31,818 bases of DNA from an uncultured Gammaproteobacteria bacterium (GCA_964611415.1 CAZSXQ010000004.1:1-31818), one strand, 5' to 3'; counted from the first letter of the stretch, positions 2,512 through 24,788 are shown. Program-made: numbers and translations. Notes: generated by a model not told the origin, from the sequence alone.

Positions 2512-3306
2512 ATGAAAATAAAAAATCTTCACGATCAGGAAGATTGGGAAAAATATTACAAACACCACCCGCCCCTTGAGGTAAAATTAAGCTCCGGAAT
2601 TTTTAATTCCTACGATATTTTCTTATGCGACTATCTAATTAAAAAACATATCCCGGAAAATAAAGACTTACTAAAAAATCTTCCTGTGATTTGTGAGATA
2701 GGAGGAGGAGACGGACTTCTAGTAAAAAAGTTTGCCCAAATGATAGGTTACAAGCCGTATAGTATCGAATACTCAAAAAAGGCAGCCGCAATCTCTGCAA
2801 GAAACGGTGTAGAAGTTTATGTCGCCGATGCTTTTGACAAAAAAGTAACAAGTAAATTCAAAAACAAATTTGATGCTGTTTTTTCTTACGGTTTTATTGA
2901 GCATATTATCCCCCCGGAAAAAGCGATCAGACTTCACTATGATTTAGTTAAACCTGGAGGATACGTCATTATTCAAATTCCGAGATTCAAAGCTTTTAAT
3001 TACTTAAGACTTCTGTTGTTTAGACCAGATTTAATCAAAAATCATAATCTTGAGATTATGAACGAAGATATTTTGGGAAAATTATGCAAAGATCCTGAAA
3101 TAAAAAAAATATTTTGCGGAAATTACGGAACATTTAAGCTTAGGCTTCCTATGGAAGAAAAAAATCTAAAATATTATACATTGAAAGTTATTTGCTATTT
3201 TGATTACATACTAAATCCTTTATTCAGAATTTTGTTTGGCTCTAAAGGGTTTGAGAGTTATCTTTTTAGTCCCTCTGTTCTGTTCATCGGACAAAAGAAG
3301 AAATAG
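2512..3306 (+). CDS. Class I SAM-dependent methyltransferase
   Basis: Motif I CEIGGGDG, FDAVFSYGFIEHI, LVKPGG. Confidence 0.9.
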   Translation: MKIKNLHDQEDWEKYYKHHPPLEVKLSSGIFNSYDIFLCDYLIKKHIPENKDLLKNLPVICEIGGGDGLLVKKFAQMIGYKPYSIEYSKKAAAISARNGVEVYVADAFDKKVTSKFKNKFDAVFSYGFIEHIIPPEKAIRLHYDLVKPGGYVIIQIPRFKAFNYLRLLLFRPDLIKNHNLEIMNEDILGKLCKDPEIKKIFCGNYGTFKLRLPMEEKNLKYYTLKVICYFDYILNPLFRILFGSKGFESYLFSPSVLFIGQKKK

Positions 3307-3317
3307 TTTTTTACGAT

Positions 3318-4511
3318 ATGTTAAGAGTTCCATATGCTCTGTCAGTTTATGATGAAAACGAAATTAACGCTGTAGTAAAAGTGCTTAAAGAGCATCGAAC
3401 AAACGCAGGAAAAGAAACAAGTAAATTCGAAGAAAGAATTGCAAAATTATTTGGAAAGAACTACGGAATAATGGTTAACTCCGGTTCGTCAGCAAATCTC
3501 TTAGCAGTTGAGCTATCAGATCTTCCTCCAAAATCAGAAGTTATTACTCCCGCATTAACTTTTTCAACTACTATTGCTCCTCTCATTCAAAAAGGACTTG
3601 TTCCGGTTTTTACGGATGTCCTTCCCGGAAAGTATGTAATAGATGTGGATCAAGTTGAAAAACTAATAACCCCGAAGACAAAGGCATTAATGGTTCCCCT
3701 TCTTTTAGGAAATGTTCCCGACATGGAAAAACTTCAGTCAATTGCAAAAAAACATAATCTTATATTTATTGAAGACTCCTGTGACACAGTAGGAGCAACG
3801 TATAAAGGAAAGGCCACAGGCTATTACTCAAACTTTACTACTACAAGTTTTTTCGGCTCACACATAATTACCACTGGAGGAAATGGAGGAATGGTTTTAG
3901 TAAACGGGTCAAAACATAGAGATCGCGCAAAAATATTACGAGGATGGGGAAGAAGCTCTTCAGTATTCAAAGAGTCTGAAAGCATAGAAAAAAGGTTCAA
4001 ACAAAAAATAGGCGACGTAGAATACGATGCAAAGTTCATTTTCGATGAAATAGGTTACAACTTTCTTCCTAACGAGATGTGTGCTGCTTTTGGAAATATC
4101 CAATTAAAAAAAATAAACATATTTAAAAGAACTAGAGAAAGAAACTTTAGTTATTTAAAAAACTTTTTTAAAAAATACGAAAACTTTTTTATTCTACCCC
4201 AAGAAGAAGAAAACGTATCAACTCAGTGGCTAGCATTTCCTCTTACTATAAAAAAAACAGCTCCTTTTACGAGGATTGAATTGGTAAAATATTTGGAAAG
4301 ATCTAACATTCAGACTCGTCCTATTTTTACCGGAAACATTTTAAAACAACCTGGATTTAAAAACATTCCGCGGATTGAGAGCAAAAATGGATATCCTGTT
4401 ACTGATGAAATCATGGAAAGAGGATTTGTGGTGGGGTGTCATCACGGGTTAGAAGAAAAACATATTGATAAATTAAAAGAGGTATTTGAAGATTTTATGA
4501 AGAGGTATTAG
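3318..4511 (+). CDS. DegT/DnrJ/EryC1/StrS family PLP/PMP enzyme, RfbH(E1)/ColD-type sugar 3-dehydratase-like
   Basis: VNSGSSANLLA, EDSCD, SFFGSHIITTGGNGG (His182 at the usual Lys position), RGWGR...KRF...YDAKFIFDEIGYN, QTRPIFTGNI. Confidence 0.85.
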   Translation: MLRVPYALSVYDENEINAVVKVLKEHRTNAGKETSKFEERIAKLFGKNYGIMVNSGSSANLLAVELSDLPPKSEVITPALTFSTTIAPLIQKGLVPVFTDVLPGKYVIDVDQVEKLITPKTKALMVPLLLGNVPDMEKLQSIAKKHNLIFIEDSCDTVGATYKGKATGYYSNFTTTSFFGSHIITTGGNGGMVLVNGSKHRDRAKILRGWGRSSSVFKESESIEKRFKQKIGDVEYDAKFIFDEIGYNFLPNEMCAAFGNIQLKKINIFKRTRERNFSYLKNFFKKYENFFILPQEEENVSTQWLAFPLTIKKTAPFTRIELVKYLERSNIQTRPIFTGNILKQPGFKNIPRIESKNGYPVTDEIMERGFVVGCHHGLEEKHIDKLKEVFEDFMKRY

Positions 4512-5532
4512 AATTCTGTCCCCTTTTAAGAGTTTTTTCAATAAACCACACCATCTCCGAAAGACTATATGAAGTAAGCATTACAACTGCAAGAACTGGA
4601 TGCAGAAACCATGCCCAATCGCGTATTTTAAGATAACCTTTGATACTTTCATAGGTAGGGTGAACAAAAGTTATGGTAAAAATAATAAATTTTATTAAAT
4701 TTCGCCTATCTCTTGCTGATTGCCAATTGAAAACTAAATATTTTCTTTTTCCTCTTCTCTCGTCATAAAACTCTCTTTTAACTTGGAATCTTCTTTTAGC
4801 ATAATAAAAGATATTTGGCGGAATAACGTGAATCACTGTATTCTTAACAACGCCACATGTGTTATAACCAAGTTCAAGCATGTCAACAAAAACGTCAGGA
4901 TGCACATATTCATTAGGATCCTTGTTAACCTTACTCATAGCGCTGTTTCTAAACATATGTCCGTTATCTCCCATTGTAGGAAGACTCTCCTTATCAAATT
5001 CTACTACCCAGTATCCAGGAGTATCTTTTATAATTCTTCCCTTATCGTATCTTTTTTGAGTCAAAGGGATCTTATCGCATCTTCCAAGATAATAAAGCGT
5101 AGGATCTGCTGCGCCAAAAAAAGCACCATAACGTGTTGTAGCCGACATCCCTTTTTCGTAATCATTGTAAGCGCTGAACGTACAAAAAACTTTTCTATTA
5201 TCTATAAAAGGCTGTACCATTTCTGCCAACCATGTTTTAGAAGTAGGAATATTATCTGTCTCGAGACAAAGAACTAATTCTCCTTTAGCTTTTTTAACTC
5301 CTTCGCTAAATCTGACCTGGTTTAGAAGCATCAAGTGAGGTCTAACATCTACGCTGCATCCGTATTTTTTTGCTAGTTCGATCGTACCGTTTGTAGATCC
5401 CCCATCCATAACGATGTGCTCAATCACATTTTTATACGTTTGCTTTTTTAGTGCTTCGAGTACTTTCTTAAATATCTTAAGATCAGGATTAAGTGAACCG
5501 GTATAAATACTAACAGTTGGATATTTGTTCAT
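4495..5532 (-). CDS. GT2 family glycosyltransferase with hydrophobic C-terminus
   Basis: VMDGGSTNGT, LETDN; paralog of 15984..17006. Confidence 0.88.
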   Translation of the reverse strand: MNKYPTVSIYTGSLNPDLKIFKKVLEALKKQTYKNVIEHIVMDGGSTNGTIELAKKYGCSVDVRPHLMLLNQVRFSEGVKKAKGELVLCLETDNIPTSKTWLAEMVQPFIDNRKVFCTFSAYNDYEKGMSATTRYGAFFGAADPTLYYLGRCDKIPLTQKRYDKGRIIKDTPGYWVVEFDKESLPTMGDNGHMFRNSAMSKVNKDPNEYVHPDVFVDMLELGYNTCGVVKNTVIHVIPPNIFYYAKRRFQVKREFYDERRGKRKYLVFNWQSARDRRNLIKFIIFTITFVHPTYESIKGYLKIRDWAWFLHPVLAVVMLTSYSLSEMVWFIEKTLKRGQNSNTSS

Positions 5533-5574
5533 AATACTTTATCTTGGTCATTTAATATGCTTTATATTCTTAGT

Positions 5575-5603
5575 ACTCTAATATAAAAAAAATATTGAGT
5601 CAA
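5575..5603 (-). promoter_or_regulatory. Candidate internal sigma70 promoter for the 4495..5532 GT2, with a palindrome over the -35
   Basis: Minus strand TTGACT-N17-TAGAGT; atattga-g-tcaatat palindrome at 5592-5606. Confidence 0.5.
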
Positions 5604-5626
5604 TATGGTTCAAAGAGATTCTTGTG

Positions 5627-6361
5627 TTATTTATTTTTTTTAGCCACTAATATAAGAATTGAAGCCAGGGAGTATTTATTAGAAAATAAACGATCCATAA
5701 TACGTATTATCCCAGGAAACATTGTGAACTCTAGCCCGGACTTTTTAACAATTTTAAAACCGTGAAGCTCTACTATGTCAGCAAGTGCTCCCCCTGTAAA
5801 AACACGCATGTGACCTAGTGGACTTTTGTAATTAGTAAATTTTCTTGTAAATTTAATTCCCAAGGTTTTATCGAGCGTGCTTACTTCGGTAAAAAAGGGC
5901 TGAAGTCCAATAAGCAAAAAAAATCTATTAAACCAAGCAGCAAGGTTAGGAGTGCTAATGATCATAACCCCCCCTTTTTTTAAAACTCTTTTTGCTTCTC
6001 GCATAAGATGATCCGGATTAACGACATGTTCGATAATATGAGAAATAATCACTATGTCAAATGAAGCATCTTTGTAATTCCATTTTTCCTCTGCATCCCC
6101 AAGTCTAACATTCATTCCGTTTTTTCTACATATCTCCAGAGCCTCTTCGTTTAAATCAAATCCATACACATTGTCGCTTAAAGTTTTACCAAGCGAACTG
6201 ACTCCACAAGCTACATCAAGAACTTTCTTTTTGGAAGAAAATGGAATCTCTGGAATCTTAGCCCTAGTAAGCTTAACCCCTTCTTCAGTTATTTTGATTT
6301 CAGCATCTCCAATGTTGGAATATGTTTCGTGGTAATATGAGGTCGATTTAGACGATTTCAT
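5627..6361 (-). CDS. Class I SAM-dependent methyltransferase
   Basis: VLDVACG, FDIVIISHIIEHV, RVLKKGG, STPN. Confidence 0.9.
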   Translation of the reverse strand: MKSSKSTSYYHETYSNIGDAEIKITEEGVKLTRAKIPEIPFSSKKKVLDVACGVSSLGKTLSDNVYGFDLNEEALEICRKNGMNVRLGDAEEKWNYKDASFDIVIISHIIEHVVNPDHLMREAKRVLKKGGVMIISTPNLAAWFNRFFLLIGLQPFFTEVSTLDKTLGIKFTRKFTNYKSPLGHMRVFTGGALADIVELHGFKIVKKSGLEFTMFPGIIRIMDRLFSNKYSLASILILVAKKNK

Positions 6362-7280
6362 TTTTTCTTCTAATCACCTTTTCAATTACTGAACAGATTT
6401 GTTCCGGAAGTAGACCATTCAGTCCTCTCATAAAATTCTGATTCCCCGTTTTTTTACTAAACTCGTTTGGAACTCCTATTCTTTTAAACATGACACCTGT
6501 TTTATTTTCAGCAAGAACTTCTGCCATCGCACTACCTAGACCTCCGGTAATAAAATGCTCTTCAAGGGAAAAAATACTTTTTCCTTTTCTCGCATATTCA
6601 AGAATTATTTTCTCATCTAATGGTTTTATAGAGGGCATGCTAATTACTCCTATGGAATATTTCTTTTTAAGCATTTCTGATACTTTTACTGCTGTAGGAA
6701 GCATTGTTCCCATAGTAAAGATCGTAACATCCATACCTTTCTTTACTACAATTCCTTTTCCTATACTAAATTTAGGTTTTTTAATATGAACCGTAGGCTC
6801 TCCGGCTTTTCCTAATCTTATATAAACAGGTCCATTAATTTTAAAAGCAGCTTTGGTAACAAGTTCTGTCTCAATGGGATCTCCCGGAGCAAAGATTGTA
6901 ATTCCGGGAATTGTCCTCATTACACCTAGATCTTCAAGTCCATAATGAGTATGACCGTAAGGACCATATGAAAATCCGGATCCGATTCCCACAATTTTTA
7001 CATTCAAATTTTGATAACAAATATCATTTCTGACTTGTTCGAAATTTCTCATAGTTACAAAAGGCATTATTGAATAAATAACTGGAATTCTCCCTCCCAT
7101 TGCCATTCCAGCTGCTGCTCCTGTCATGTTTTGCTCTGCAACTCCTGCATTAAGATATTGCTTTGGGAGCTTTTCAATAAATTCTTCAAAAACTGAAAAC
7201 CCAAGATCTCCCGTTAAAAGCATTATTCTTTCATCCTTCTTGGCAAGCTCAAAAAGTGTTTTCACAAATGCAATTCTCAC
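6348..7280 (-). CDS. Transketolase-like protein, C-terminal subunit (pyrimidine-binding + C-terminal domain)
   Basis: GVAEQNM, FEQVRND, GHTHYGLED, PVYIRLGK, EEHFITGGLGSA. Confidence 0.93.
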   Translation of the reverse strand: MRIAFVKTLFELAKKDERIMLLTGDLGFSVFEEFIEKLPKQYLNAGVAEQNMTGAAAGMAMGGRIPVIYSIMPFVTMRNFEQVRNDICYQNLNVKIVGIGSGFSYGPYGHTHYGLEDLGVMRTIPGITIFAPGDPIETELVTKAAFKINGPVYIRLGKAGEPTVHIKKPKFSIGKGIVVKKGMDVTIFTMGTMLPTAVKVSEMLKKKYSIGVISMPSIKPLDEKIILEYARKGKSIFSLEEHFITGGLGSAMAEVLAENKTGVMFKRIGVPNEFSKKTGNQNFMRGLNGLLPEQICSVIEKVIRRKNEIV

Positions 7281-8104
7281 TTTAAATCCTCCATTGCATT
7301 TTTATATTCTTCCTCGGTTGGAGGCTTATACTGTGAGGCTACCTGATCAACATATTTTGGAATTCCCTTATATCCTTTGATCGTATGAGCAATTAGTACT
7401 GAGGGTTTATTATTCTCAAATGGAATGTTAACTAGTGATTTAATAATTTTTTCAATATCATGACCATCGACCTCATTCACTCCCCATCCAAAATTTTTCC
7501 ATTTTTCAGCAAAGGGCTCTAGCGTAAGTATCTCATCTGTTCTTCCAAAGCCTTGAAGCTTATTGTAATCAACTATTGCTATTAAATTCTTTAACTTTTG
7601 ATGACCCGCAAAAAGCATAGCCTCCCAATTCGATCCCTCATCACACTCTCCATCAGAAAGCATTACAAATACTCTCTGTTTAGACTTATCTATTTTTTTA
7701 GCATATGCTAACCCAACTCCAATTGATAATCCGTGTCCAAGGGATCCAGCAGACGCCTCTACACCAGGAACTACATTTCTGGTAGTATGACCCGGTAAAC
7801 CATTATTAGCTTCATAACTGGAAAGAATCTCTTTATCAAAGTATCCCTTTTCCGCTAACACTGCATATAATGCCTTGCTATCATGGGCTTTACTGAAGAT
7901 CAAATAATCTCTTTTATCATCTTGTGGCTTTTTAGGATTAACTCTCATAATCTGAAAGTAAAGAACCGTAAGTAGCTCTACACAAGAAAGTGCACCTCCC
8001 ATGTGAGCACTTTTAGCATTATATGCCATAGTTATAATCATTCTTCTTATCTCGTCAGCATGCTGTTCTAGTAATTTACTATCGCTCTTCAACTTATTAT
8101 TCAT
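7277..8104 (-). CDS. Transketolase-like protein, N-terminal ThDP-binding subunit
   Basis: SAHMGG, SKAH, PGH, GSLGHG, SDGECDEG...N ThDP motif, VDGHD, HTIKG. Confidence 0.93.
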   Translation of the reverse strand: MNNKLKSDSKLLEQHADEIRRMIITMAYNAKSAHMGGALSCVELLTVLYFQIMRVNPKKPQDDKRDYLIFSKAHDSKALYAVLAEKGYFDKEILSSYEANNGLPGHTTRNVVPGVEASAGSLGHGLSIGVGLAYAKKIDKSKQRVFVMLSDGECDEGSNWEAMLFAGHQKLKNLIAIVDYNKLQGFGRTDEILTLEPFAEKWKNFGWGVNEVDGHDIEKIIKSLVNIPFENNKPSVLIAHTIKGYKGIPKYVDQVASQYKPPTEEEYKNAMEDLK

Positions 8105-9041
8105 ATAAATAATTGTTTTTACTAAACCATTCTATAGTTTTTAACAGTCCCTCGTCCAGCGAATGTTTTGCCCTCCATCGTAACATTTTTGAGGTTTTTC
8201 TCGTGTCTGCTTGCCATTTCCCAGATTCCACCTGCCTTTCTTGTATCGGCACTGCTCCCCACTCAACTTTTGATCTGCTTCCAGATAAATTCACTATCCT
8301 GTTAACTGTTTCCTCTAATGTGTGCTGACGTCCTGTACCAATATTAAAGATTTCACCGGGATTTATTTTTACCTTGCATGTGTTTAGATAAGCATCTACC
8401 ATGTCTTCTATGTAGATAAAGTCTCTTACATTTTTTTTATTACCTACCGAAATTGGATCATTTTTTATTGCTGCTCTGACAACGGTTGGGATAAAGCGGG
8501 GCTTATGCTCATAAGGACCGTACGCTGAAAATAAGCGGAATGTAATTATCGGGAGATTGTTCCGCACTGCTTCTTTATGTACATATAGCGTTACTGCAGT
8601 TTTAATTACCCCGTAATCATTTATGGGAAAAGATAGATCTGTTTCGATCATTTTTCCAAACTTTACTCCATATTCTGAAGAACTTCCCGTATTGATAAAT
8701 AGTTTAAATGGAACTTTCTTCGAAGCATTTATTAAATTAATTGTTCCTTTAAGATTAACATTTATTAAATCTTCAATCTTATCTTCTTTTGGCAATGATC
8801 CATAAGCGGCAAGATGAAATATGTAGGTGGGTTTAATTTTAGAAATGACTTTATCAAGTTTGTAATCAAGGAGATCGACTTCATGGGCTTTTATTTTTGT
8901 TTTAAGATCAGAAAGTCTCCAGTTGAGTATTTTATTTCTAGAAAGAACATGTACGTCTTTCCCTTCTTTAACCAGACGTCTAACAATATTTGCGCCTACA
9001 AAACCAGTTGCCCCAGTAACTAAATAAATATCTTTATTCAT
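8097..9041 (-). CDS. NAD(P)-dependent epimerase/reductase (extended SDR), candidate NDP-keto-sugar reductase
   Basis: TGATGFVG, SSSEYG, YGVIK (YxxxK), RDFIYIED. Confidence 0.88.
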   Translation of the reverse strand: MNKDIYLVTGATGFVGANIVRRLVKEGKDVHVLSRNKILNWRLSDLKTKIKAHEVDLLDYKLDKVISKIKPTYIFHLAAYGSLPKEDKIEDLINVNLKGTINLINASKKVPFKLFINTGSSSEYGVKFGKMIETDLSFPINDYGVIKTAVTLYVHKEAVRNNLPIITFRLFSAYGPYEHKPRFIPTVVRAAIKNDPISVGNKKNVRDFIYIEDMVDAYLNTCKVKINPGEIFNIGTGRQHTLEETVNRIVNLSGSRSKVEWGAVPIQERQVESGKWQADTRKTSKMLRWRAKHSLDEGLLKTIEWFSKNNYLYE

Positions 9042-10171
9042 TTCAAAAACATTGGCTCAGGAGCAATCACAGCTATTTGAGATTTTTTATAGCCATATTT
9101 ACCCATCAAGGTTTTAATTATTTCTTCTTTGTATGCCATAGCCGTGACGACGACAACATCTGCTTCTTTTTTTAAAAGCCTATCAACTGAAAAAACCGGT
9201 ATATGGCTTCCGGGAAGGTATGTACCTCTTTTATTGGGATCCGAATCAACACAAAATAAAATTTTGTTCTTTTCAATGTTTGAAAAAGATATTGAAGATA
9301 TCCCTTTTGCACCTGCCCCCCATAACACCACTTTCCTATTTTCTAACTTACCAAAGAAATCTTTGTATTGATCCCTATAATCGACAAATCGCTTTTGGAC
9401 ACTATTACTAAGTCCTGATTTTGAAGTGTATTGAAAGTAAGCTATTAAATAATTCTCATCTGGAGAATGTTTTATTGATAAAACATCGAATCCGTTTTGC
9501 TGAAGCATATATGATAATGAGGTTGGTGAGTAATAGGCAACGTGATCAGGGAAAAAATCATAATACCTATTGTCTCTTAAGGCTTTAACCAAAGATGGAA
9601 CTTCAACCAATCCGTATCCATCAACTTTCAGAAACTTTTTTACATTTGTAAGTAATTTTTCAGGATTTGAAATGTGTTCGAAAACCTCAAGGGTTACAAA
9701 TGCATCCGCTTTCTTACCTAATTTAAATCTATCATCGACATAATTTCTAAGAACTTTTACTCCTTTTTCCCTTGCAAGCTTAGTAGCTATATCACTTGGT
9801 TCTATTCCTATTGATTTTGCTTTTGCATTCATAAGAGCGTAAACAAAATATCCATCTCCGCATCCGACATCAATAACTAATTTATTTTTTAGATTGAAAG
9901 ACCCAACAAAATCACGAGCTAACCCCTTCAAATATTTACGAGCATGAGGCGAATAAGTACGGCTCATAATATAATCATCGTAGTAGTCGTCGACAACATA
10001 ATTTTTGTCTGAAAGCTGAACCAGCGTGCATCTCTCGCATTTTAAAATTTTTAGATTTATTTTTTTATCTTTTAGTAGATTTTTCTCAGAGATAACCTGA
10101 ACACGCATAGGAGCATTTGGGACTTCTAGGAATACGGTGAGTTTAATAAAACCACAGGAAATACATCTCAT
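9038..10171 (-). CDS. NDP-hexose C-methyltransferase-like protein (Zn-binding N-terminus, SAM domain, C-terminal Rossmann-like domain)
   Basis: CxxC (CISC) ... CxxC (CERC), DVGCGDG, EVFEHI, PDHVAYYS, LWGAGAKG, VDSDPNKRGTYLPGSHIPV: TylCIII/TcaB9-type architecture. Confidence 0.8.
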   Translation of the reverse strand: MRCISCGFIKLTVFLEVPNAPMRVQVISEKNLLKDKKINLKILKCERCTLVQLSDKNYVVDDYYDDYIMSRTYSPHARKYLKGLARDFVGSFNLKNKLVIDVGCGDGYFVYALMNAKAKSIGIEPSDIATKLAREKGVKVLRNYVDDRFKLGKKADAFVTLEVFEHISNPEKLLTNVKKFLKVDGYGLVEVPSLVKALRDNRYYDFFPDHVAYYSPTSLSYMLQQNGFDVLSIKHSPDENYLIAYFQYTSKSGLSNSVQKRFVDYRDQYKDFFGKLENRKVVLWGAGAKGISSISFSNIEKNKILFCVDSDPNKRGTYLPGSHIPVFSVDRLLKKEADVVVVTAMAYKEEIIKTLMGKYGYKKSQIAVIAPEPMFLK

Positions 10172-11124
10172 AAAATTTTACTATACCAATCTAGCACTCC
10201 AGGGAGTGCTTTTTCAAGTGTGTATTCATTTTTCCAACCTAAGCTTCTTATTTTCTGATCATTTAAATGTTGATAAGGAATTTCATTTTTAGCATTATTT
10301 TTAATTACATATTTTATTTTTTTACCAAATACTTTTTCTGCTAATTTAATTAATTCTAAAACAGACAGCTTGTCGCTAGATGAAAAATTATATGCTTCTC
10401 CAATTGTTTTCTCTAAAGAATTTGCAAGAAGCAAATATCCATCAACAACATCTTTTACATACAAATAATCGCGTACGTATTTGCCGTTACTTCTAATAAC
10501 AAACGTCTCATCCCTTATTAGTGCTTCACAAATGCCAGGAATTATCCTATCCATATGTAAATCGCCCTCCCCATATACGTTTCCGAAACGGGTTATAACG
10601 ACAGGAAGATTATATGTTTTAAAATATGTTTGAGAAATAAGATCTGCTGAGGATTTGGACACGTCATAGGGATGATCGCCCTTGAGAGGGGTTTCTTCAG
10701 TATAGGGTTTTTCCGTTTTTCCGTATGCCTTGTCTGAAGAAGCTACGATAACTCCTTTCACAAAACTCTTTCTTGATGTCTCTAAAACATTTACAGTTCC
10801 AAGAATATTTGTTTCAAATGTTAAAACAGGATTGGAATACCCCGCGCTTACAATCGGCTCTGCAGCAAGATGGAAAACGAGCTCAGGGTTAGATTCTTTA
10901 AAAACCCTGAAAACTTCGTTAATATCTCTGATATCTACCAGCTCAAACTTTGAGTTTTTATAAGATCCGTTGGATACATAATTTGAGAATCGAGAGATAA
11001 CTATGTCAATTACCGTAACGCTTGCACCCTCCGATATCAAAGAATAAACCAAATGGCTTCCTATAAATCCTGCCCCGCCGGTTACCAAAATCCTTTTACC
11101 CTTCAATCCTGCCATACTCTCCAT
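10168..11124 (-). CDS. rfbG: CDP-glucose 4,6-dehydratase-like SDR
   Basis: TGGAGFIGS, HLAAEPIV, SSDKAYG, PYDVSKS, RFGNVYGEGD; directly downstream of rfbF. Confidence 0.82.
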   Translation of the reverse strand: MESMAGLKGKRILVTGGAGFIGSHLVYSLISEGASVTVIDIVISRFSNYVSNGSYKNSKFELVDIRDINEVFRVFKESNPELVFHLAAEPIVSAGYSNPVLTFETNILGTVNVLETSRKSFVKGVIVASSDKAYGKTEKPYTEETPLKGDHPYDVSKSSADLISQTYFKTYNLPVVITRFGNVYGEGDLHMDRIIPGICEALIRDETFVIRSNGKYVRDYLYVKDVVDGYLLLANSLEKTIGEAYNFSSSDKLSVLELIKLAEKVFGKKIKYVIKNNAKNEIPYQHLNDQKIRSLGWKNEYTLEKALPGVLDWYSKIL

Positions 11125-11882
11125 TCCGGATTATCTATCCAGAGCTTGTTTAAACTATCAACATCAGGATAAGTGTCCATAGAATGCCAGAATCCCTCAT
11201 GTATGAAAATAGAAAGCTGGTCTTTTGAAATTAAACGCTTGAAGGCTTCATGTTCCATTTCTCCCTCTTTAATATAATCGAACACTTCACGCTTAAATAC
11301 CATAAATCCGCCATTTACCCACTCCTTCAGAACCGGCTTTTCTGTAAATTTCGAAGCGAGAAACTTATCATTTGCAGTAATTAAACCATACTTGCTTCTA
11401 GGATGAACTCCTATAATAGTGCCTATTGTTTTTTGTTTCTTGTGAAATTTTACGATTTGATTTATATCAACATTTGAAACTCCATCGCCATAAGTAACCA
11501 TAAAATTCTGATCTTCCTTAGGAATGTATCTCTTAATTCTTAAAATCCTTTCTCCGGGAAGAGTTTCCTCTCCCGTATCTACAAATGTGATTTTAAAGTT
11601 GTCACTATCTTTACCTGTCCTTTTATAAACCTTTGTATTTCCGGATTTTGTGTGAAGAGTAAAATTATAAGCGTAGAGCTGTTGATTAATAAAGTATTGC
11701 TTTATAAAGTCCCCTTTGTATCCAAGAGCTATTATAAAATCGTTATATCCGTAATGAGAATATATTTTCATTATGTGCCACAGGATTGGTTTTCCTCCAA
11801 TTTGAACCATAGGCTTTGGCTTAAATTCAGTCTCTTCTTTAAGTCTGTAGCCAATCCCTCCGCAGAGTATTACTGTTTTCAT
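11103..11882 (-). CDS. rfbF: Glucose-1-phosphate cytidylyltransferase
   Basis: ILCGGIGYRLKEETEFKPKPMVQIGGKPILWHIMKIYSHYG, VDTGEET, TYGDGVSNV, WVNGGF, GFWHSMDT. Confidence 0.93.
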   Translation of the reverse strand: MKTVILCGGIGYRLKEETEFKPKPMVQIGGKPILWHIMKIYSHYGYNDFIIALGYKGDFIKQYFINQQLYAYNFTLHTKSGNTKVYKRTGKDSDNFKITFVDTGEETLPGERILRIKRYIPKEDQNFMVTYGDGVSNVDINQIVKFHKKQKTIGTIIGVHPRSKYGLITANDKFLASKFTEKPVLKEWVNGGFMVFKREVFDYIKEGEMEHEAFKRLISKDQLSIFIHEGFWHSMDTYPDVDSLNKLWIDNPEWRVWQD

Positions 11883-11967
11883 ATATTTAAAGAGCAGAAA
11901 CGATGATGGGTTTTATTTAACAATTTCAGTGCTTATCAATTTGATCAAAGAAGATCGAATAAAGACC

Positions 11968-11996
11968 ATGTTAGCAATTTGATAATTTCCTGTCAA
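11968..11996 (-). promoter_or_regulatory. Sigma70 promoter for the rfbF operon
   Basis: Minus strand TTGACA-N17-TAACAT with TGn extension. Confidence 0.7.
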
Positions 11997-12010
11997 TAAG
12001 ATTCGGTCGA

Positions 12011-12039
12011 TTGACAGTCTAATCGGACAACCGTATAAT
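12011..12039 (+). promoter_or_regulatory. Perfect consensus sigma70 promoter for the STELLO-like gene
   Basis: TTGACA (12011-12016)-N17-TATAAT (12034-12039), 14 nt before ATG 12054. Confidence 0.85.
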
Positions 12040-12053
12040 ATTTTTTATCTAAA

Positions 12054-13025
12054 ATGCCTAATAAAGCAATCGTTATTACTTCTATTTATCCTCCCACAAA
12101 AGCTGTTTTATTATTTTCAAAGCTTAAGAGCTTTGCTATGTTTGTTTCTGGAGATAATAAAACTCCAAAAGGGTGGAGCCATAAAAATGTTCACTATCTA
12201 TCCATTAGCGATCAGCACAAGAAATTTCCCAAACTTTCAAAACTAGTTTCCCAAAATCATTATGCTAGGAAAAACTTTGCTTACTTAAGCGCAATTTTAT
12301 CAGGAATAGAATTCTTATACGAAACAGACGATGATAACCTTCCTTATAATTTTTTCCCAAATTTTATAGATTCAGAAAAAAACATGGAAGAAATCAATGC
12401 TCCATTAAGTTTTAATATATATTCTGAATTTACAAAAAAGAGAGTATGGCCTCGTGGTATACCCCTCAATCTTATTGATAATAAGATCTCTAAAAGGAAA
12501 AAAAATAAAGTTATACCATTAATTCAGCAATCGCTTGCAGACCTAGATCCTGATGTTGACGCGATATATCGCTTAACCAACGGCGATGTGATAACCTTCG
12601 CAAAAGGAAAGATACTTTGCTTAGCAACAGGTACCTTTGCACCATTTAATTCTCAAAATACTTATTGGAGTAAAAAAGTTTTCCCACTACTCTATCTCCC
12701 TTCAACGGTGGATAGCAGAGTATGCGATATTTGGAGGGGATATATCGCTCAAAGAATTCTGTGGGAGCTCAACTCAAGACTTATCTTTCTATCTCCTTCA
12801 GTTTATCAAAAGAGAAATGTTCATGATTACATGAAAGACTTCGTACAAGAACTTGAACTCTACACTAAAACCGAAGATTTATTAATTACCCTTAACAAAA
12901 TCAAGCTTAAGGGAAATATTGATGTTATGTTAATCGATATTTATTCACTACTAATTGAAAAGGGATTCTTTAAAAAAAAGGAATTATCAATACTTAGAGA
13001 ATGGCTGAGATTAGCCTCGCAGTAG
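12054..13025 (+). CDS. STELLO/DUF288-like glycosyltransferase-family protein
   Basis: IVITSI..PT, GDNKTP, YARKNFAYL, ETDDDN, WPRGIPL, QSLADLDPDVDAIYRL, PFNSQNT, RVCDIWRGYIAQRILW, RNVHDYMKDF. Confidence 0.82.
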   Translation: MPNKAIVITSIYPPTKAVLLFSKLKSFAMFVSGDNKTPKGWSHKNVHYLSISDQHKKFPKLSKLVSQNHYARKNFAYLSAILSGIEFLYETDDDNLPYNFFPNFIDSEKNMEEINAPLSFNIYSEFTKKRVWPRGIPLNLIDNKISKRKKNKVIPLIQQSLADLDPDVDAIYRLTNGDVITFAKGKILCLATGTFAPFNSQNTYWSKKVFPLLYLPSTVDSRVCDIWRGYIAQRILWELNSRLIFLSPSVYQKRNVHDYMKDFVQELELYTKTEDLLITLNKIKLKGNIDVMLIDIYSLLIEKGFFKKKELSILREWLRLASQ

Positions 13026-13033
13026 CATTTTTA

Positions 13034-13972
13034 TTATTTTATTTTTTGATCGGTATACCAATCAATAGTTCTTTTTATTCCTTCTTGAAAATCGACTTTA
13101 GCAACAAACCCGAACTCTCGCTTGGCTCTTGACACATCAAGGGACCTTCTTGGTTGTCCATCCGGCTTTGTCCTATCCCATCTTATTTCACCTTTATAAT
13201 TCATTAATTTACATATTAGTTTTATTAAATCTTTAATAGATATCTCCATTCCTGATCCCAAATTAACAGGTTCTGAACTTTCATATTTCTGAGTCGCTAG
13301 AACAATCCCCCTAGCTGCGTCTTCTACGTATAAAAATTCTCTGGTCGCTCTTCCGCTCCCCCATATCTCAACATAGGGATTTTTCTTAAGCTTCGCCTCA
13401 TATACTTTTTTAATCAGTGCTGGTATAACATGCGAAGATTTAGGGTCAAAATTATCACCAGGACCATATAGATTAACAGGCAGAAGATAAATACTTTTAA
13501 AGCCGTATTGCTGTCTATATGCTTGGGATTGTACAAGGAGCATTTTTTTAGCCAGTCCGTAAGGAGCATTTGTTTCTTCGGGATAGCCTTCCCATATATC
13601 CTCTTCTTTAAACGGAATTGGAGCAAACTTAGGATAAGCACATACTGTACCAATTGCAATGAATTTCTTGACCTCAGCAAGCCTAGATGCCTCAATAAGC
13701 TGTACGCCCATCATTAAGTTATCATAAAAAAAGCTTCCGGGATTTTCTCTATTTGCTCCGATTCCTCCTACGACAGCTGCAAGATGGATAATAATATCTT
13801 TTCCTTTAACAGCTTTTTTACAATCTTCCAACTTTCTGAGATCAATTTCTTTTGAAGATGGGGTGAATATTTGTTTTCTAGCAATCCCTTTACTTAATAA
13901 CTCATTAATTACATACGATCCCAAAAATCCATTTCCTCCTGTAACCAAAATTTTCTTATTTTTTAGCTGCAT
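13034..13972 (-). CDS. fcl: GDP-L-fucose synthase family (GDP-4-keto-6-deoxymannose 3,5-epimerase/4-reductase)
   Basis: [67 protein letters not shown]. Confidence 0.93.
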
Positions 13973-13986
13973 AATACTTAGTAATT

Positions 13987-15084
13987 TTATTGCTCCATAA
14001 ATTTAAGTAGCGAATTATAGAATTTATGATACTCATAACGATTAAGTATAACACTTACACCTTCTTTGTATTTTAAGTAATTGGATTTAATTTCATCGAT
14101 AGCTCTACCTAAATCATCTATCGTTTCATCGATTGCCACCCCCGCCTGTTCTTTCTCAAGCTCTTTATGGAAATATGTAGTTTTTGTAGTAATAACAGGA
14201 AGATTAAATTCGAGATAATTTTTAATCTTAGTCGGCTCACAATAAATAGAAACGTTCATTGTGTCATTCTCATAGAGCGCAATCCCTATGTCCCATTTTT
14301 CCGCTATCCTATCCATGTCATCTACATAGCCATAAAACTTCACTTTATTTTTGAGATTCATTTCTTTTGCTAAATCCTTATACTGTTTTAATTTGTACCC
14401 ATCTCCCACAATATCTAAAATAGCATTATTAAATTTTTGTAAATAATTGAATATTAGATCTAGTCCTTGCTGTTCACGTATAACGCCCACAAAACCTAAG
14501 CGTATTGGCGAATGAGGAGTTGTTGTAATTTTGTATTTTTTGCGTTTTGTACCAAGGGGAACAAGCATTCTTATTTTTCCATAATCTAAACTGCTTGTGC
14601 TAGAATAAACTTTTTTGAGAGGAGGACTTACATACCAAACTATTCCAAGGGACTTATTATAATAATTTGCCAACGAGTTATATATTCTCATAAATCCCTT
14701 ATTGCTCGGATAAAAATCGCCTATCCAATAAATAAATCTAACTTTTTTTATAAAACTCGGCACCCTGCTTAATATGCAAAAAATAGGAGTATCTACCACC
14801 ACAAAGCTTTTTCTTGGAACAAATCTTATTAGAATATAATAAAAATAAATATAGTAGACTAGAAGTTTTACAATATTGCTTTTCCCCTTATACATGGGAA
14901 ACTTATTTGTTCTTTTCATCCTGCCATTTTGATATATTTCCATATAACTTGGTGTTTTTGAATATCCATGCGGAAAGTGAAAACAAACGATAACCTCAGA
15001 ATTATCAATTAAATATTGCTTGAAACTTCCTATATTTTTGAGATTATCGTAGATTGCGTAGTAGACGCTTTTATATTTTTTCAT
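13987..15084 (-). CDS. GT4 family glycosyltransferase
   Basis: [41 protein letters not shown]; start moved to MKKYKS (ATG 15084), overlapping the upstream stop region. Confidence 0.8.
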
Positions 15085-20311: not shown

Positions 20312-21347
20312 CTTCGTATACTTTTTCCATGCCGGTCACAAACTTTTCCCACGTAAATTGTTTTGCCTGTTTAAGTCCTTTTTCCGACATTTCTTCCAAA
20401 ACCCTTTTATTATCTAAAAGCTCTTCTATTCCTTTGGCAATTGAGCCGGAGTCATTTGCATCAATATAACAGGGGGCGTCTCCACCGACTTCTTCAAGTG
20501 AAGAAACTTTAGAAGTGATGACAGGGCAACCGGCCTGCATTGCCTCAAGAACCCCTAAACCAAAGCCTTCATAAAGAGATGGCATTAGAAATATGCTCGC
20601 ATGATTATATAAATCGTTTAGATCTTCATCCTCTACAAATCCAGGAAGAAAAAAATGGTTATCGTTTTTTATAATATCTTGGAAGCTTGCCAATTCCTTA
20701 TTCCAAGCATTTTTTTTGTCATAATTTTCGTTCCTAAGAGCTTTTCCTACCATTACTATATTAGTATTTGTTTTTTTTACAGCTTCAGCAATTCTTACAA
20801 GATTTTTGTTCCACGTAGCATCTCCTACGTAAAGTATGAAATCCTCTGGGAAATTATATTTCTTTAAAACTCTTTTTTCTTTAGTTTTTTTTCTAAAAAC
20901 TTTCGATGCTGCGAGAGGAACTACTCTTACTTTTTTAGGATTAACGCTTACTATTCTTAGTATATCTTTCCTCGACGATTCCGAATCTGTAACTATTAAA
21001 TTTTTATTCTTAAGCGCCTGCTTTTGGATTTCCCATTTTAGTCTTCCTTTCACTCCGACAGGAAACATTTTTGGGAAAACTAGAGGAATAAGATCGTGCA
21101 CTGTAACTATGGCCGGTATTTTTACTCTCAGAGGAAGAGATAGAAAAAAAGGTTCGAAGTATGGATAGTGAACTAAGTCAAAACCGCTTAGCGGTACGGA
21201 TTTATTTTCTATAATTGTATATGAATTTTTCCTATCATAGATAGACATATTGTTTATTAATTCTCTGATATATGTTCCTGAGCCTCTTACTTCATGTTGA
21301 GCTAGGTTATCTCGATTCAAGGGTGATTTATCAATTGCTATCCTCAT
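20298..21347 (-). CDS. GT4 family glycosyltransferase (mannosyltransferase-like)
   Basis: TVHDLIPL, TDSESSR, YVGDATWNKN, PSLYEGFGLGVLEAMQAGCPVITS. Confidence 0.92.
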   Translation of the reverse strand: MRIAIDKSPLNRDNLAQHEVRGSGTYIRELINNMSIYDRKNSYTIIENKSVPLSGFDLVHYPYFEPFFLSLPLRVKIPAIVTVHDLIPLVFPKMFPVGVKGRLKWEIQKQALKNKNLIVTDSESSRKDILRIVSVNPKKVRVVPLAASKVFRKKTKEKRVLKKYNFPEDFILYVGDATWNKNLVRIAEAVKKTNTNIVMVGKALRNENYDKKNAWNKELASFQDIIKNDNHFFLPGFVEDEDLNDLYNHASIFLMPSLYEGFGLGVLEAMQAGCPVITSKVSSLEEVGGDAPCYIDANDSGSIAKGIEELLDNKRVLEEMSEKGLKQAKQFTWEKFVTGMEKVYEDVFI

Positions 21348-22999
21348 TTTTTAATTATAACAGGAGTTTTAATCAAGAGTGTTGTTAACGTTAACACTGA
21401 AATTAAAAAGATTATGTAAGACGTTTTTTGGACTTTAGTACTTTTCAGAAAAACCCTAATCTCATGTTTACCTTTAGGAATTTCTATTCCTATCTTGCCT
21501 TTTTTGTTTAATAAGTTACCTTTTTTTTCATCAATTTCAACACTCCATCCAGGAAAATAAGCAGTGTTAACTAATATTTCCGATTTTTCATTTAAGCTAG
21601 CTTTAAGTTTATATTCATTAGATTTCATTTCTAAAAACTGTATGTCTCCTAAATTTTTATCAATCTCGATTATTTGGGGGGTCTTCTGGGGAACTGCTGG
21701 CAACCAAGCAGTGTTAAAAGCATCTCCAGGACTATTTGTACCATCCGTAAAATTAGACCTGGATAAATAATAATTATCTGTCCTTAGATGATGGAAAGGT
21801 GCTTTAGCATAACCGTAGCCTAAACCAAAAGAAAGAAGGATTAAGATGAGTGCAACAAAAACCCTTGCTCTATAGCGATTCTTATAAAACTTTTCTTGTA
21901 CTAACCCTCCTGCTAAGAAAGATGTAATCACTATTAATACGCTCAAAAGTCTCCAGGGAAACTGGACGAATGACGCTAACGGTACAATTTCCCAAAGCCA
22001 AGAGGAAAAAGGTGTAATAAGAAAAAGAAATAAAAAGAATAATCCGAGAAAGAAAATTATATTCTTTTTATTTTTTAGAAAAAATAATGATACTAGGGAA
22101 ATCAAAACTACCGACACATTTGCTATTCCTATCTGAAAGGACATCTGGTCAGCTCCTCCTACACCAGAAAAACCGTATCCCCAAGAAGAATAAATTAATT
22201 TATAAAGAACCGGATAATGATCGGCAGGTAAAGACGTTTGGAGCCCTACTACAAACATCTTCTCTATTAATGCTGGTAGCCAGAAAGGCGCTGCCAGGCC
22301 TAGACCAAGAATTGCTATCATTGCAAATTTTTTAACTTCATGTATTTTATTTTTAACATTCGATATAAGGAAAGCCGCATAAAGAAGAAAAAATGAGAAG
22401 AATACGAGCGCCAAAATGTTATGAGAATAAACTAAAAGAGTTAAAAATATGACTGATAATAAAACGTAAATACTTTTTTTTGTTTCGATAAGTGAGGAAT
22501 AAGACCATAGAAGTCCGGGAAACAAACCTAAACTCCAAACCTCTCCCACAGACCCTCTTACGTAGACATCAAGAAAATGGTACGGGGAAAAGGTATAAAA
22601 TACTGAAGAAACCACTCCTCCTAAGTCTCCCCAAAACCTCCTGGACCATAAATAAAAGAACACAGAACCAATTAGTGAGGCCATTATCATATTTAATTTA
22701 AAAGAATCAATAAAACTAAATCCTAAAATGTGTAAAAATGAGGCAAAGTAATTAGGCAAGGGGTAGACATAATTAAAAAGAGGTATCCCAAACCCGTTGT
22801 TAAAATCAGGAGCCCATCTCGGATATATAATTCCGTCACTTAAAGCCTTGTGAAACTGCTGAAACCTTAGCACGTGGTATTCTCCATCATGAGTAGGAGG
22901 AAGACCAGGGCTGAATAAGCCTAGGACCGATAGGAATCCAAAAGCCAGAACTACGAACCAATATTTATATTTCAAAAATAATTCCATTTTTATCTTCAT
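21344..22999 (-). CDS. GT-C-type integral membrane protein (PTPS-related/YfhO-like membrane family)
   Basis: THDGEYH..R......L..G..YPRWAPDFNNGFGIPLFNYVYPL, QFPWRLL, many TM segments; start may be 22987. Confidence 0.75.
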   Translation of the reverse strand: MKIKMELFLKYKYWFVVLAFGFLSVLGLFSPGLPPTHDGEYHVLRFQQFHKALSDGIIYPRWAPDFNNGFGIPLFNYVYPLPNYFASFLHILGFSFIDSFKLNMIMASLIGSVFFYLWSRRFWGDLGGVVSSVFYTFSPYHFLDVYVRGSVGEVWSLGLFPGLLWSYSSLIETKKSIYVLLSVIFLTLLVYSHNILALVFFSFFLLYAAFLISNVKNKIHEVKKFAMIAILGLGLAAPFWLPALIEKMFVVGLQTSLPADHYPVLYKLIYSSWGYGFSGVGGADQMSFQIGIANVSVVLISLVSLFFLKNKKNIIFFLGLFFLFLFLITPFSSWLWEIVPLASFVQFPWRLLSVLIVITSFLAGGLVQEKFYKNRYRARVFVALILILLSFGLGYGYAKAPFHHLRTDNYYLSRSNFTDGTNSPGDAFNTAWLPAVPQKTPQIIEIDKNLGDIQFLEMKSNEYKLKASLNEKSEILVNTAYFPGWSVEIDEKKGNLLNKKGKIGIEIPKGKHEIRVFLKSTKVQKTSYIIFLISVLTLTTLLIKTPVIIKK

Positions 23000-24788
23000 A
23001 TATTTTTTTAAATTGCTTAATAAGATCTTTATTGTAATTCATTTCATTTTTTGCAAAACCATCCTTGTATATAACAATATACTTTATATTGTACTTCTCT
23101 AAAATTTCTTTTCTCTGGGCTTCATCACTTCCGTTAATAATTTGCTCACGTTCGGATGTCCTCCGGGAGGGATCTTCTCCGTAAACAAAAAGATAGTGAG
23201 CACGTCCTAGGAAGGTTTTCTTTCCTATGAGAGACATGGGGTCATAAATTTCCCCATTAGTAATAATCATCTTTTCCGGGGATAGCCTATGGAGTGCGGT
23301 TTTCATTAAATCATTTTTACCGTAGTCAGGAATCCTAGTGTAAATGTCATTTTTTATTACCAAATTATTGACAACACCCGAAGATATGAAAACAAAAATA
23401 AGAAGTAGTGACAGGTATTTAATGGCGTTATTAATTTTCGAAACTCGGAAAATTGCATAAGCTGAAAACATATTCATAAATATTATCCAAAGATTAAAAA
23501 ACTTATGATTATCGTACTCAAACCTTGTACTAAACGTTAGGACATTAGGAATTAAAAAAAGCAGAGATGAAATTAAAAAAACTTTTTTTGCATTTCTGTT
23601 AGATAGAAAGAATCCAATTAAAATCAATAACGCACCTATTCCAAGGTTTAAAATCCAAAATTTCATAAACGTAATCGCTGTAAGGTTTTCAATTAGGAAT
23701 CCAATCCTTACTGCAATCAACCCGCTTGAGGAGATACCAACCAAAAACATTTGAATCAGAGAAAATACTGAAGCGATAATAATCACCATTAATAACTCTT
23801 TCTGTCTTTTTACAATAAACATACCTAATATTAGGATCATGATTGCTACAAACATCATTCCGTGCCATAGAAAAGATAGCCCAATCATTGCGCCAAAAAA
23901 AACGGCAGTTTTTAAACTTAAGGATTTTGAATCCCAAAAATAAAAAAAGACAAACAATACGAATGCTATACCAAAGATTAAATGCCTTTGGTTTAAAAAA
24001 GTATTCATATTGAAAAAACTAAATATAAGAGACTTGTCGAAAGGAGCGTTATTTATATAAGTCTGATTTCTCCATATTTCTAAAGGCAAACCAAGGCTAA
24101 CTCCTTTTTGAACAATAAAGTTTAAAAAAGAAAAATTACTTGGAAAAATAAAAAAAAGTGTTGATAGTATAGCTACTATTGCACTTTTAAAAATTCCCCT
24201 AGATATCGAGTAGACATAAAATAACAAGCTAGTAAGTGATAAAGCGCTTATGGTATTAATCGCATAATCAATTCTTAATCCCAGGTTCTCCAATATTCCG
24301 GCAAATAGATCAAACATAAAATAATATATTCCCCCACCATTAGCATAGAAGGGAATTTCGAAAGGAAAATTATTTCCTAGCGAGAATGATCTTATGAAAG
24401 GAATGTGAGCTCCGTAATCCAGATATATATTAGAAGCTATTAAAAATTCTGATGTTGATAAATCATAGCTAAAACTTTTTTTAAATACTAAAAATGAAAT
24501 GATAAAAACTAAAATAAAAATGAGCGGATGAAGAAAGTTTTTATTAGGAGGTTTGATTTTTCTGACATTGACTAAAATAGCGGTCATTACGAAGAATGCA
24601 TAAATAGCTATAGAAAAAGAAAGGCTGCCTATTAAATATGACGTACCTAGGTAAATAATTGGAATTGATACAATTGAACCTAATACAAAAGCGTCAGGAA
24701 TAATTAATTTTTTTTCTCTATCCGGAATAAAAAAACGGCTAAGAAGGAGTCCGGTTAAAAATATAAGAGCTAAAAAAACTATCCACAT
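22965..24788 (-). CDS. Multi-pass membrane protein, probable GT-C glycosyltransferase
   Basis: 607 aa, many TM segments, loop NIYLDYGAHIPFIRSF, YYFMFD, QRHLIFG, soluble C-terminal domain. Confidence 0.65.
   Translation of the reverse strand: MWIVFLALIFLTGLLLSRFFIPDREKKLIIPDAFVLGSIVSIPIIYLGTSYLIGSLSFSIAIYAFFVMTAILVNVRKIKPPNKNFLHPLIFILVFIISFLVFKKSFSYDLSTSEFLIASNIYLDYGAHIPFIRSFSLGNNFPFEIPFYANGGGIYYFMFDLFAGILENLGLRIDYAINTISALSLTSLLFYVYSISRGIFKSAIVAILSTLFFIFPSNFSFLNFIVQKGVSLGLPLEIWRNQTYINNAPFDKSLIFSFFNMNTFLNQRHLIFGIAFVLFVFFYFWDSKSLSLKTAVFFGAMIGLSFLWHGMMFVAIMILILGMFIVKRQKELLMVIIIASVFSLIQMFLVGISSSGLIAVRIGFLIENLTAITFMKFWILNLGIGALLILIGFFLSNRNAKKVFLISSLLFLIPNVLTFSTRFEYDNHKFFNLWIIFMNMFSAYAIFRVSKINNAIKYLSLLLIFVFISSGVVNNLVIKNDIYTRIPDYGKNDLMKTALHRLSPEKMIITNGEIYDPMSLIGKKTFLGRAHYLFVYGEDPSRRTSEREQIINGSDEAQRKEILEKYNIKYIVIYKDGFAKNEMNYNKDLIKQFKKIYEDKNGIIFEI

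Follow-up and report, generated by a model that had tools for sequence, protein, structure and literature searches.

The stretch of DNA analysed here, called the window at its full 31,818 nt, is a 31.8-kb glycan locus on contig C4 of an assembly labelled as an uncultured Gammaproteobacteria bacterium (GCA_964611415.1; 891 kb in 119 contigs, ~89% complete). What is a transketolase doing among sugar-nucleotide genes? In this window, the two halves of a split transketolase (TK), a thiamine diphosphate (ThDP) enzyme, lie within a cassette whose best explanation is an operon devoted to making a nucleotide-activated, carbon-branched deoxysugar for a surface glycan. The closest relatives of the window's proteins are found in metagenome-assembled genomes (MAGs) of Gottesmanbacteria, Levybacteria and Woesebacteria, and by this measure the host fits an organism of the Candidate Phyla Radiation (CPR), Microgenomates-like in type. 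TK pairs, RfbF and GT2 proteins from further MAG records carrying the label 'uncultured Gammaproteobacteria' (L006, L008, L009, L014) likewise group tightly with CPR sequences, those of Gottesmanbacteria and Levybacteria, and judged from these proteins the taxonomic labels of those records look doubtful. Genes were defined by a listing of open reading frames (ORFs) together with Pfam and NCBIfam scans, which place the following at the module:

2512-3306, plus strand: second class I methyltransferase, 264 aa (PF13489, PF08241)
3318-4511, plus strand: 3-dehydratase of the E1/ColD type, acting with pyridoxamine 5'-phosphate on nucleoside diphosphate (NDP)-4-keto-6-deoxyhexoses, without Fe-S ligands, 397 aa (PF01041)
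4495-5532, minus strand: GT2 glycosyltransferase, candidate transferase for the product, 345 aa (PF00535)
5627-6361, minus strand: class I S-adenosylmethionine (SAM) methyltransferase, last of the overlapped genes, 244 aa (PF13847, PF08241, PF13489)
6348-7280, minus strand: transketolase-like subunit B (TK-C; Pyr and C-terminal domains), 310 aa (PF02779, PF02780)
7277-8104, minus strand: transketolase-like subunit A (TK-N; ThDP/PP domain), 275 aa (PF00456)
8097-9041, minus strand: extended short-chain dehydrogenase/reductase (SDR), candidate YerF-like branch-ketone reductase, 314 aa (PF01370)
9038-10171, minus strand: NDP-hexose C-methyltransferase of the TylC3/TcaB9 type, 377 aa (PF13489, PF08484)
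10168-11124, minus strand: extended SDR resembling cytidine diphosphate (CDP)-glucose 4,6-dehydratase, 318 aa (TIGR02622)
11103-11882, minus strand: rfbF-like glucose-1-phosphate cytidylyltransferase, first in the run, 259 aa (TIGR02623, PF00483)

Seven of these genes form a minus-strand run from rfbF to the methyltransferase at 5627-6361, with successive overlaps of 22, 4, 4, 8, 4 and 14 nt. A gap of 94 nt separates the last of them from the GT2 gene, on which the plus-strand methyltransferase (2512-3306) and the DegT/RfbH-like dehydratase gene (3318-4511) converge, the latter with a 17-nt overlap. ORFs and domain scans therefore bear out what the first-pass annotation of this DNA had described, namely an overlapped run from rfbF to a methyltransferase, a GT2 after it and a 3-dehydratase on the opposite strand. 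Including the C-methyltransferase, three methyltransferases belong to the module. Its gene order is retained in a metagenomic relative (locus L003) whose TK-N is 81% identical and, since the TK pair also recurs beside NDP-sugar genes in many phyla, the arrangement is not a matter of chance.

The TK pair belongs to the transketolase superfamily, as seen from its transketolase-domain matches above the Pfam cut-offs (PF00456 with 129.8 bits in TK-N; PF02779 and PF02780 in TK-C) and from the presence of Asp155, Asn185 and Glu411; scores against the NCBIfam transketolase equivalogs stay under their cut-offs. The closest solved structure is the split transketolase of Carboxydothermus hydrogenoformans (6yak for TK-N and 6yaj for TK-C, ~219 and 218 bits) and, by homology to the 6yak heterotetramer, the two subunits are taken to pair as one enzyme. 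In the numbering of E. coli TktA, taken from an alignment of the pair to that protein, His26, His66, His100, Asp155, Asn185, Arg358, Ser385, Glu411 and His473 are retained, and three positions are altered: His461 to Gly, Asp469 to Tyr and Arg520 to Lys. In canonical transketolases, as known from the yeast and E. coli structures, His461 binds the substrate phosphate and Asp469 the C2 hydroxyl of the aldose acceptor. His100 and His473 hold the C1 hydroxyl of the dihydroxyethyl-ThDP intermediate, and His261 helps to cleave ketose donors. With Gly461 and Tyr469, the window pair departs from the residues of a canonical transketolase (EC 2.2.1.1). The Carboxydothermus enzyme shares with it the two-chain architecture and the ThDP-binding and catalytic residues, but has the canonical His and Asp at positions 461 and 469.

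This substitution pattern is characteristic of a clade. Among pairs from the loci that we surveyed, residue 461 is Gly in 60 and residue 469 is never Asp, and His26, His66, His100, Asp155, Asn185, Glu411 and His473 are invariant in the clade. Of the 150 closest representatives of clusters at 50% identity, around 145 also combine a small residue at 461 with a non-Asp residue at 469, and Glu411 and His473 are invariant among all 150. The canonical residues at both positions are found in the CPR transketolases taken for comparison (20 of 20 housekeeping split pairs and 7 of 7 fused forms); over all canonical enzymes compared, Asp469 is present in 34 of 34 and His461 in 33, the remaining one having Tyr. 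We read Gly461 together with a variable residue 469 (Tyr here) as an aldose-phosphate site remodelled for an NDP-keto-sugar. Residue 469 furthermore varies with genomic context, being Leu in 15 of 16 loci with PglF or Bac_transf and, in loci of the CDP type, one of Tyr, Gln, Ala or Leu, as would be expected if position 469 contacted the nucleotide-sugar acceptor. Two other candidate signatures were rejected: a Ser-Asp-Gly ThDP motif turned out to be common to CPR housekeeping split transketolases, and loss of His261 is no family trait, as His is present in 51 of 61 members and Gln occurs only in the window's subclade. One Levybacteria MAG carries two tandem TK pairs in a single sugar operon (L007:9168-12700; also L090). 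The second of these is highly divergent (His66 to Trp, His100 to Cys, Asn at 461, Leu at 469) and may, from these exchanges, be degenerate or differently specialised.

Could the pair be the organism's pentose-phosphate enzyme? It is not the only transketolase of the genome, in which a separate, fused 608-aa transketolase is encoded on contig C40. Among 40 related genomes, none of the 15 from the same genus has more than a single TK match, of the fused type wherever the frame is complete, and since no other type occurs in them, the window pair is accessory. Genomes of the same order mostly carry one canonical split pair, and a second TK copy is present in only two others. A canonical transketolase is also kept in five genomes with a glycan-locus pair (Paenibacillus chibensis, P. 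tyrfis and MAGs of Nostoc, Clostridium and Levybacteria). Phylogeny, proposed at the outset as a check, likewise sets the pair apart from pentose-phosphate transketolases. A first tree of 68 rows separates 7 canonical TKs from 61 glycan-locus pairs by a branch with an approximate likelihood-ratio support (SH-aLRT) of 100, and in an enlarged tree of 101 rows, a branch of length 0.53, again with SH-aLRT 100, divides 67 Gly461/non-Asp469 pairs from 34 canonical TKs, among them 18 split housekeeping pairs from CPR and 9 fused forms of short length. Both are quick, unrooted maximum-likelihood trees (LG+G4, no mixture model), and the 616-column tree alignment still holds two labelling columns. The window falls in a fully supported subclade of 11 rows, all with Tyr469, from CPR MAGs and MAGs labelled 'uncultured Gammaproteobacteria'. 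All the computational checks named in the first-pass annotation thus speak for its interpretation, and none of its refuting conditions that could be examined in the sequence holds. In all likelihood, then, the pair is a dedicated ThDP enzyme of a glycan pathway and not an enzyme of the pentose-phosphate route.

Relatives of the pair number at least 583 in species-representative genomes. The locus scan used a 12-sequence TK-C alignment, and the neighbourhoods are those of the best 80 of these matches, which come from CPR, Acidobacteriota, Chloroflexota, Planctomycetota, Verrucomicrobiota, Bacillota, Cyanobacteriota, Myxococcota, Nitrospirota, Elusimicrobiota, methanogens and DPANN archaea. Neighbours were found by clustering ORFs followed by Pfam assignment and counted within 9 kb over the 62 loci whose flanks reach 6 kb or more:

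Any NDP-sugar-modifying gene: 53 of 62 loci
DegT family: 45 of 62 loci
Extended SDR: 32 of 62 loci
RfbF (homologues 40-76% identical, beside the TK pair): 16 of 62 loci
PglF-like dehydratase: 14 of 62 loci
Bac_transf: 14 of 62 loci

The expectation that similar gene sets occur in other glycan loci is thus borne out, and the survey shows that, in phylum after phylum, the pair lies inside modules for CDP-4-keto-(3,)6-deoxyhexoses. There are two recurrent architectures. One of them, the window's type, reads RfbF, 4,6-dehydratase, (DegT), SDR, TK-N, TK-C and extends to Paenibacillus, Clostridium, Nostoc and methanogens. With an E1-type 3-dehydratase as its DegT it is the commonest layout; Nostoc, Paenibacillus chibensis and Acidobacteriota have in this order the His type of DegT that marks 3-dehydratases. 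The second comprises Bac_transf (PglC-like), (TylF/class I methyltransferase), TK-N, TK-C, Lys-type DegT, (class I/II aminotransferase), (methyltransferase) and PglF, and is found in Chloroflexota, Acidobacteriota, Aminicenantota, Binatota and Parcubacteria (L045, L048, L061, L062, L067, L069, L070, L026, L049, L051 and L059, at positions ~8000-14000), where the pairs have Gly385 and Leu469. Its gene content suggests that the transketolase also acts in a bacillosamine-like route via UDP-4-keto-6-deoxy-GlcNAc. Overall, the neighbouring DegT proteins divide into 26 His-type 3-dehydratases, the majority of which carry the Fe-S motif of E1, and 33 of the Lys type. In several loci of the window's own subclade (L008, L010, L018), a Lys-type DegT and a GNAT acetyltransferase replace the C-methyltransferase and SDR, and the E1-type dehydratase is kept; SDR and aminotransferase may represent alternative ways of tailoring a branch ketone.

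The genes expected to supply the keto sugar are recognisable at the family level. The rfbF-like product aligns over positions 1-255 of the 255-position model TIGR02623 with 275 bits, under the cut-off of 300.25. The 4,6-dehydratase-like SDR scores 205 bits against TIGR02622 (cut-off 278) and has as its top structural matches 6bi4 and 1rkx, a dTDP- and a CDP-glucose 4,6-dehydratase, respectively; it contains the YxxxK motif and a Ser-Asp-Lys motif with the Asp-Lys acid/base pair, as does the Yersinia enzyme 1rkx. The 3-dehydratase reaches 358 bits against NF011936 (RfbH; cut-off 423). Among solved structures, E1 ranks first for it (3bcx, and its H220K mutant 3bb8; 250 bits) and ColD next (174 bits). 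In the alignment to 3bcx, His182 takes the position of E1 His220, which is marked by the H220K entry, and for this reason the protein is a dehydratase and not an aminotransferase, confirming the 3-dehydratase homologue reported at first pass. It shares with both E1 and ColD the catalytic His that replaces the aminotransferase Lys, but not the [2Fe-2S] ligands of E1, whose Cys251, Cys253 and Cys261 correspond to Ser, Val and Ile. Most of the homologous 3-dehydratases linked to TKs elsewhere retain these cysteines. Since they are absent here, the enzyme should work in the manner of ColD and require no E3 reductase, even if its sequence is nearer to E1. No E3 reductase is encoded within the window, and the search returned two unrelated NAD_binding_1 proteins elsewhere in the genome.

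The remaining genes of the module look like tailoring functions. From its domains (PF13489 with 75 bits, PF08484 with 61.5 bits; PF08421 with 23.5 bits is under the cut-off) and its structural matches (TcaB9 at 2e-24 over both domains, D-mycarose 3-C-methyltransferase and a sugar 3-C-methyltransferase), the C-methyltransferase classifies with the TylC3/TcaB9 NDP-hexose C-methyltransferases. Enzymes of similar type adjoin TK pairs in L076, L012, L041, L042 and other loci. The counterpart in L003 (L003:6829-9047) is only 29% identical, and an extra SDR of 355 aa stands there between the dehydratase and the SDR/TK genes; on this comparison, the C-methylation slot is variable even among close relatives. 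The SDR at 8097-9041, which overlaps TK-N by 8 nt, has epimerase/reductase-type proteins as nearest structures (MoeE5, GalE-like), with YxxxK present and the dehydratase acid/base pair absent, and an SDR lies immediately upstream of TK-N in many surveyed loci. Of the two class I methyltransferases, the one at 5627-6361 has an equivalent at the same position in L003 (75% identity) and probably O-methylates the sugar. The other, at 2512-3306, ends 11 nt upstream of the 3-dehydratase gene, is kept beside the dehydratase in L003 (72% identity) and is likely part of the same tailoring set. The GT2 has a single C-terminal hydrophobic segment (residues 313-331), and homologues of 43-51% identity adjoin TK pairs that fall in the window's subclade (L009, L011, L013, L014).

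How might these enzymes act together? With family-level support for each of the opening steps, the RfbF-like enzyme would make CDP-glucose, the 4,6-dehydratase would convert it to CDP-4-keto-6-deoxyglucose, and the His-type, Fe-S-free dehydratase would remove the 3-hydroxyl as ColD does, giving CDP-4-keto-3,6-dideoxyglucose. For what follows, we infer which reaction makes the branch, from what donor and at which position, and what SDR and GT2 do. The TK subunits would together make up a ThDP enzyme, which would draw a dihydroxyethyl unit (a C2 ketol) from a ketose phosphate or hydroxypyruvate and add it to the C-4 carbonyl, creating a tertiary alcohol with a 4-C-hydroxyacetyl branch. The branch ketone could then be reduced by the neighbouring SDR in the role of YerF, the TylC3-type enzyme would place a C-methyl group next to a keto group, one or both of the other methyltransferases would O-methylate the sugar, and the membrane-anchored GT2 would transfer it. 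We favour a ketol (hydroxyacetyl) over an acetyl unit because the His residues that keep the dihydroxyethyl-ThDP intermediate in place have been retained. A 'two-carbon or longer' branch had been suggested for this locus; of the two, a transketolase implies the C2 unit. Taken as a whole, transfer of a C2 ketol to C-4 of CDP-4-keto-3,6-dideoxyglucose, followed by reduction, C- and O-methylation and transfer by the GT2, is the course of events to which we incline, with moderate confidence.

This proposal follows the logic and layout of the yersiniose A pathway of Yersinia pseudotuberculosis (DdhA/RfbF, DdhB/RfbG, E1/E3, YerE, YerF; PMC12247030). Like that pathway, it would proceed from CDP-glucose through 4,6-dehydration, 3-deoxygenation, ThDP-dependent C2 addition at C-4 and reduction by an SDR, with the TK pair in the place of YerE, which adds activated acetaldehyde to CDP-3,6-dideoxy-4-keto-glucose (PMC12247030), and the SDR in that of YerF. 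The two differ in the ThDP enzyme, a two-subunit transketolase fold here whereas YerE is acetolactate-synthase-like; in the unit expected to be added, hydroxyacetyl as opposed to acetyl; and in the Fe-S-free dehydratase with no E3 nearby, the added C-methyltransferase and the extra methyltransferases of the window. A Pfam scan found transketolase domains only and none of the TPP_enzyme N/M/C domains of the YerE type in the pair. AviB1/AviB2-type pairs are E1-like, with an alpha subunit of PF00676, and TK-N falls just under the cut-off of that family (E1_dh; 21.7 bits against 22). Judged by its domains, the pair stands outside the YerE and AviB1/B2 families, though its mode of action is probably akin to theirs.

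Split transketolases have precedents in secondary metabolism. Rif15 of the rifamycin pathway transfers a C2 unit from xylulose 5-phosphate or fructose 6-phosphate to a ketone in vitro and, like the window pair, is encoded by two overlapping subunit genes (Rif15a/Rif15b); its acceptor is the ketone of a non-phosphorylated metabolite (PMC6002545). That acceptor is a naphthoquinone, an ester arises from the product by rearrangement, and the likeness to the window pair is drawn from the description only. Split-gene TKs with 13 Streptomyces homologues have also been proposed, without proof, to build the sugar branch of miharamycin and amipurimycin by passing a hydroxyacetyl group on to a keto sugar (Krug et al., as cited in PMC12247030). 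As described there, those enzymes belong to actinomycete antibiotic clusters, whereas the window clade occupies surface-glycan loci of several bacterial phyla and of archaea (CPR, Acidobacteriota, Chloroflexota, Bacillota, Cyanobacteriota, archaea). According to a 2025 review, transketolase-type branching is still unproven, with only the 13 Streptomyces candidates named (PMC12247030). In the literature searched, we found no description of TK pairs in cell-surface glycan loci and, as the first-pass annotation had presumed, no characterised product for this gene combination.

Several features weigh against the proposed C2 transfer to C-4. Acceptor, donor and attacked carbon are, for every member of the clade, deduced from sequence, the trees are simple, and the sample of neighbourhoods, as the best 80 of at least 583 matches, is biased towards the query. 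Arg358, Ser385 and Lys/Arg520 of the phosphate site are kept, so a sugar-phosphate substrate is possible. The C-methyltransferase and the transketolase both require the keto sugar. Moreover, a Lys-type DegT stands beside the pair in many loci, sometimes with a GNAT or hexapeptide acyltransferase, and such enzymes would be rivals for the 4-keto group if their target were not the branch ketone or another sugar. In a different explanation, which we hold to be improbable, the pair would supply a small ketol or acyl precursor, not linked to a nucleotide, for later attachment as a substituent to an amino sugar or the glycan, leaving the ring unbranched. The Lys-type DegT aminotransferases as commonest neighbour (33 proteins; DegT of either type in 49 of 73 loci), the GNAT/hexapeptide acyltransferases or class I/II aminotransferases in several loci, the resemblance of the second architecture to a bacillosamine-type amino-sugar route and the partly kept phosphate site would all agree with it. 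However, the window operon has neither a Lys-type aminotransferase nor an acyltransferase, the identity of residue 469 changes along with the kind of nucleotide-sugar module, and the minimal set of RfbF, dehydratase, SDR and TK pair (L007, L072, L073) comes without an attaching enzyme.

It is also possible, though on balance unlikely, that the pair does serve an NDP-sugar pathway with chemistry other than C2 transfer to C-4. A 2-oxoacid donor such as pyruvate would yield an acetyl branch; attack on another carbonyl, at C-3 or one made by the adjacent SDR, would give a different branch or a chain-extended sugar; and a rearrangement like that of Rif15, a precedent for unexpected outcomes (PMC6002545), is conceivable as well. 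TK-C scores equally against the DXS model and the TK models, the Gln at the position of His261 in the window's subclade would fit a decarboxylating donor, and the route proposed for miharamycin first makes a keto group with an oxidoreductase (PMC12247030). Yet His100 and His473, which contact the C1 hydroxyl of dihydroxyethyl-ThDP, are invariant, the DXS-type Asp at 469 is missing, and the constant company of 4,6- and 3-dehydratases delivers a C-4 ketone and so points to C-4. An ordinary or redundant pentose-phosphate transketolase that chances to sit in a glycan locus would account for the split form, which is the housekeeping one in many CPR relatives, for the intact catalytic ThDP residues and for a true split transketolase as the nearest solved structure. 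It is very hard to reconcile, however, with the fused housekeeping copy, the fully supported branch towards the 34 canonical TKs, the replacement of both His461 and Asp469, and the translational coupling to sugar-nucleotide genes in a neighbourhood conserved across phyla, and we give it next to no credence.

Beyond the module, the window encodes GT2, GT4 and GT-C glycosyltransferases, a Wzx-like flippase and more SDRs. Oppositely oriented between rfbF and the next SDR lies a plus-strand gene (12054-13025) for a 323-aa protein whose sole match lies at its C-terminus, to the STELLO glycosyltransferase family PF03385 (36.6 bits), with a 33%-identical homologue in L003. A minus-strand run at 21344-31613 encodes large membrane proteins, one PTPS_related/YfhO-like and two PMT_2/ArnT-like of the GT-C type, along with two membrane proteins of 607 and 377 aa without a Pfam match. 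Together with the C-terminally anchored GT2s, these predicted proteins suggest polyprenyl-phosphate-sugar-dependent glycosylation outside the membrane. At 421-1377 on the minus strand, upstream of a GT2, a 318-aa ORF has no Pfam match at 1e-5 and a GC content of ~39%, above that of its neighbours.

To our knowledge, YerE-like enzymes and E1-dehydrogenase-like pairs are the only ones shown to branch nucleotide sugars with the help of ThDP. Our broadest proposal, for and against which we see the arguments evenly balanced, is that split transketolases with Gly461 and a non-Asp residue 469 constitute a large, unnamed C-branching family across bacteria and archaea, and that the member described here contributes to an undescribed dideoxyhexose on the cell surface, a 4-C-(1,2-dihydroxyethyl), C- and O-methylated sugar derived from CDP-4-keto-3,6-dideoxyglucose. 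If true, it would be the first time that an enzyme of transketolase fold is demonstrated to make a tertiary alcohol on a sugar nucleotide. Members of the clade run into the hundreds and are spread over the surface-glycan loci of many phyla, with cultured Paenibacillus species among the carriers, which makes the question directly testable. The C2 transfer proposed here predicts new monosaccharides as well as biocatalysts for hydroxy-functionalised tertiary alcohols, and it would mean that CPR bacteria, despite their very small genomes, invest in elaborate surface sugars.

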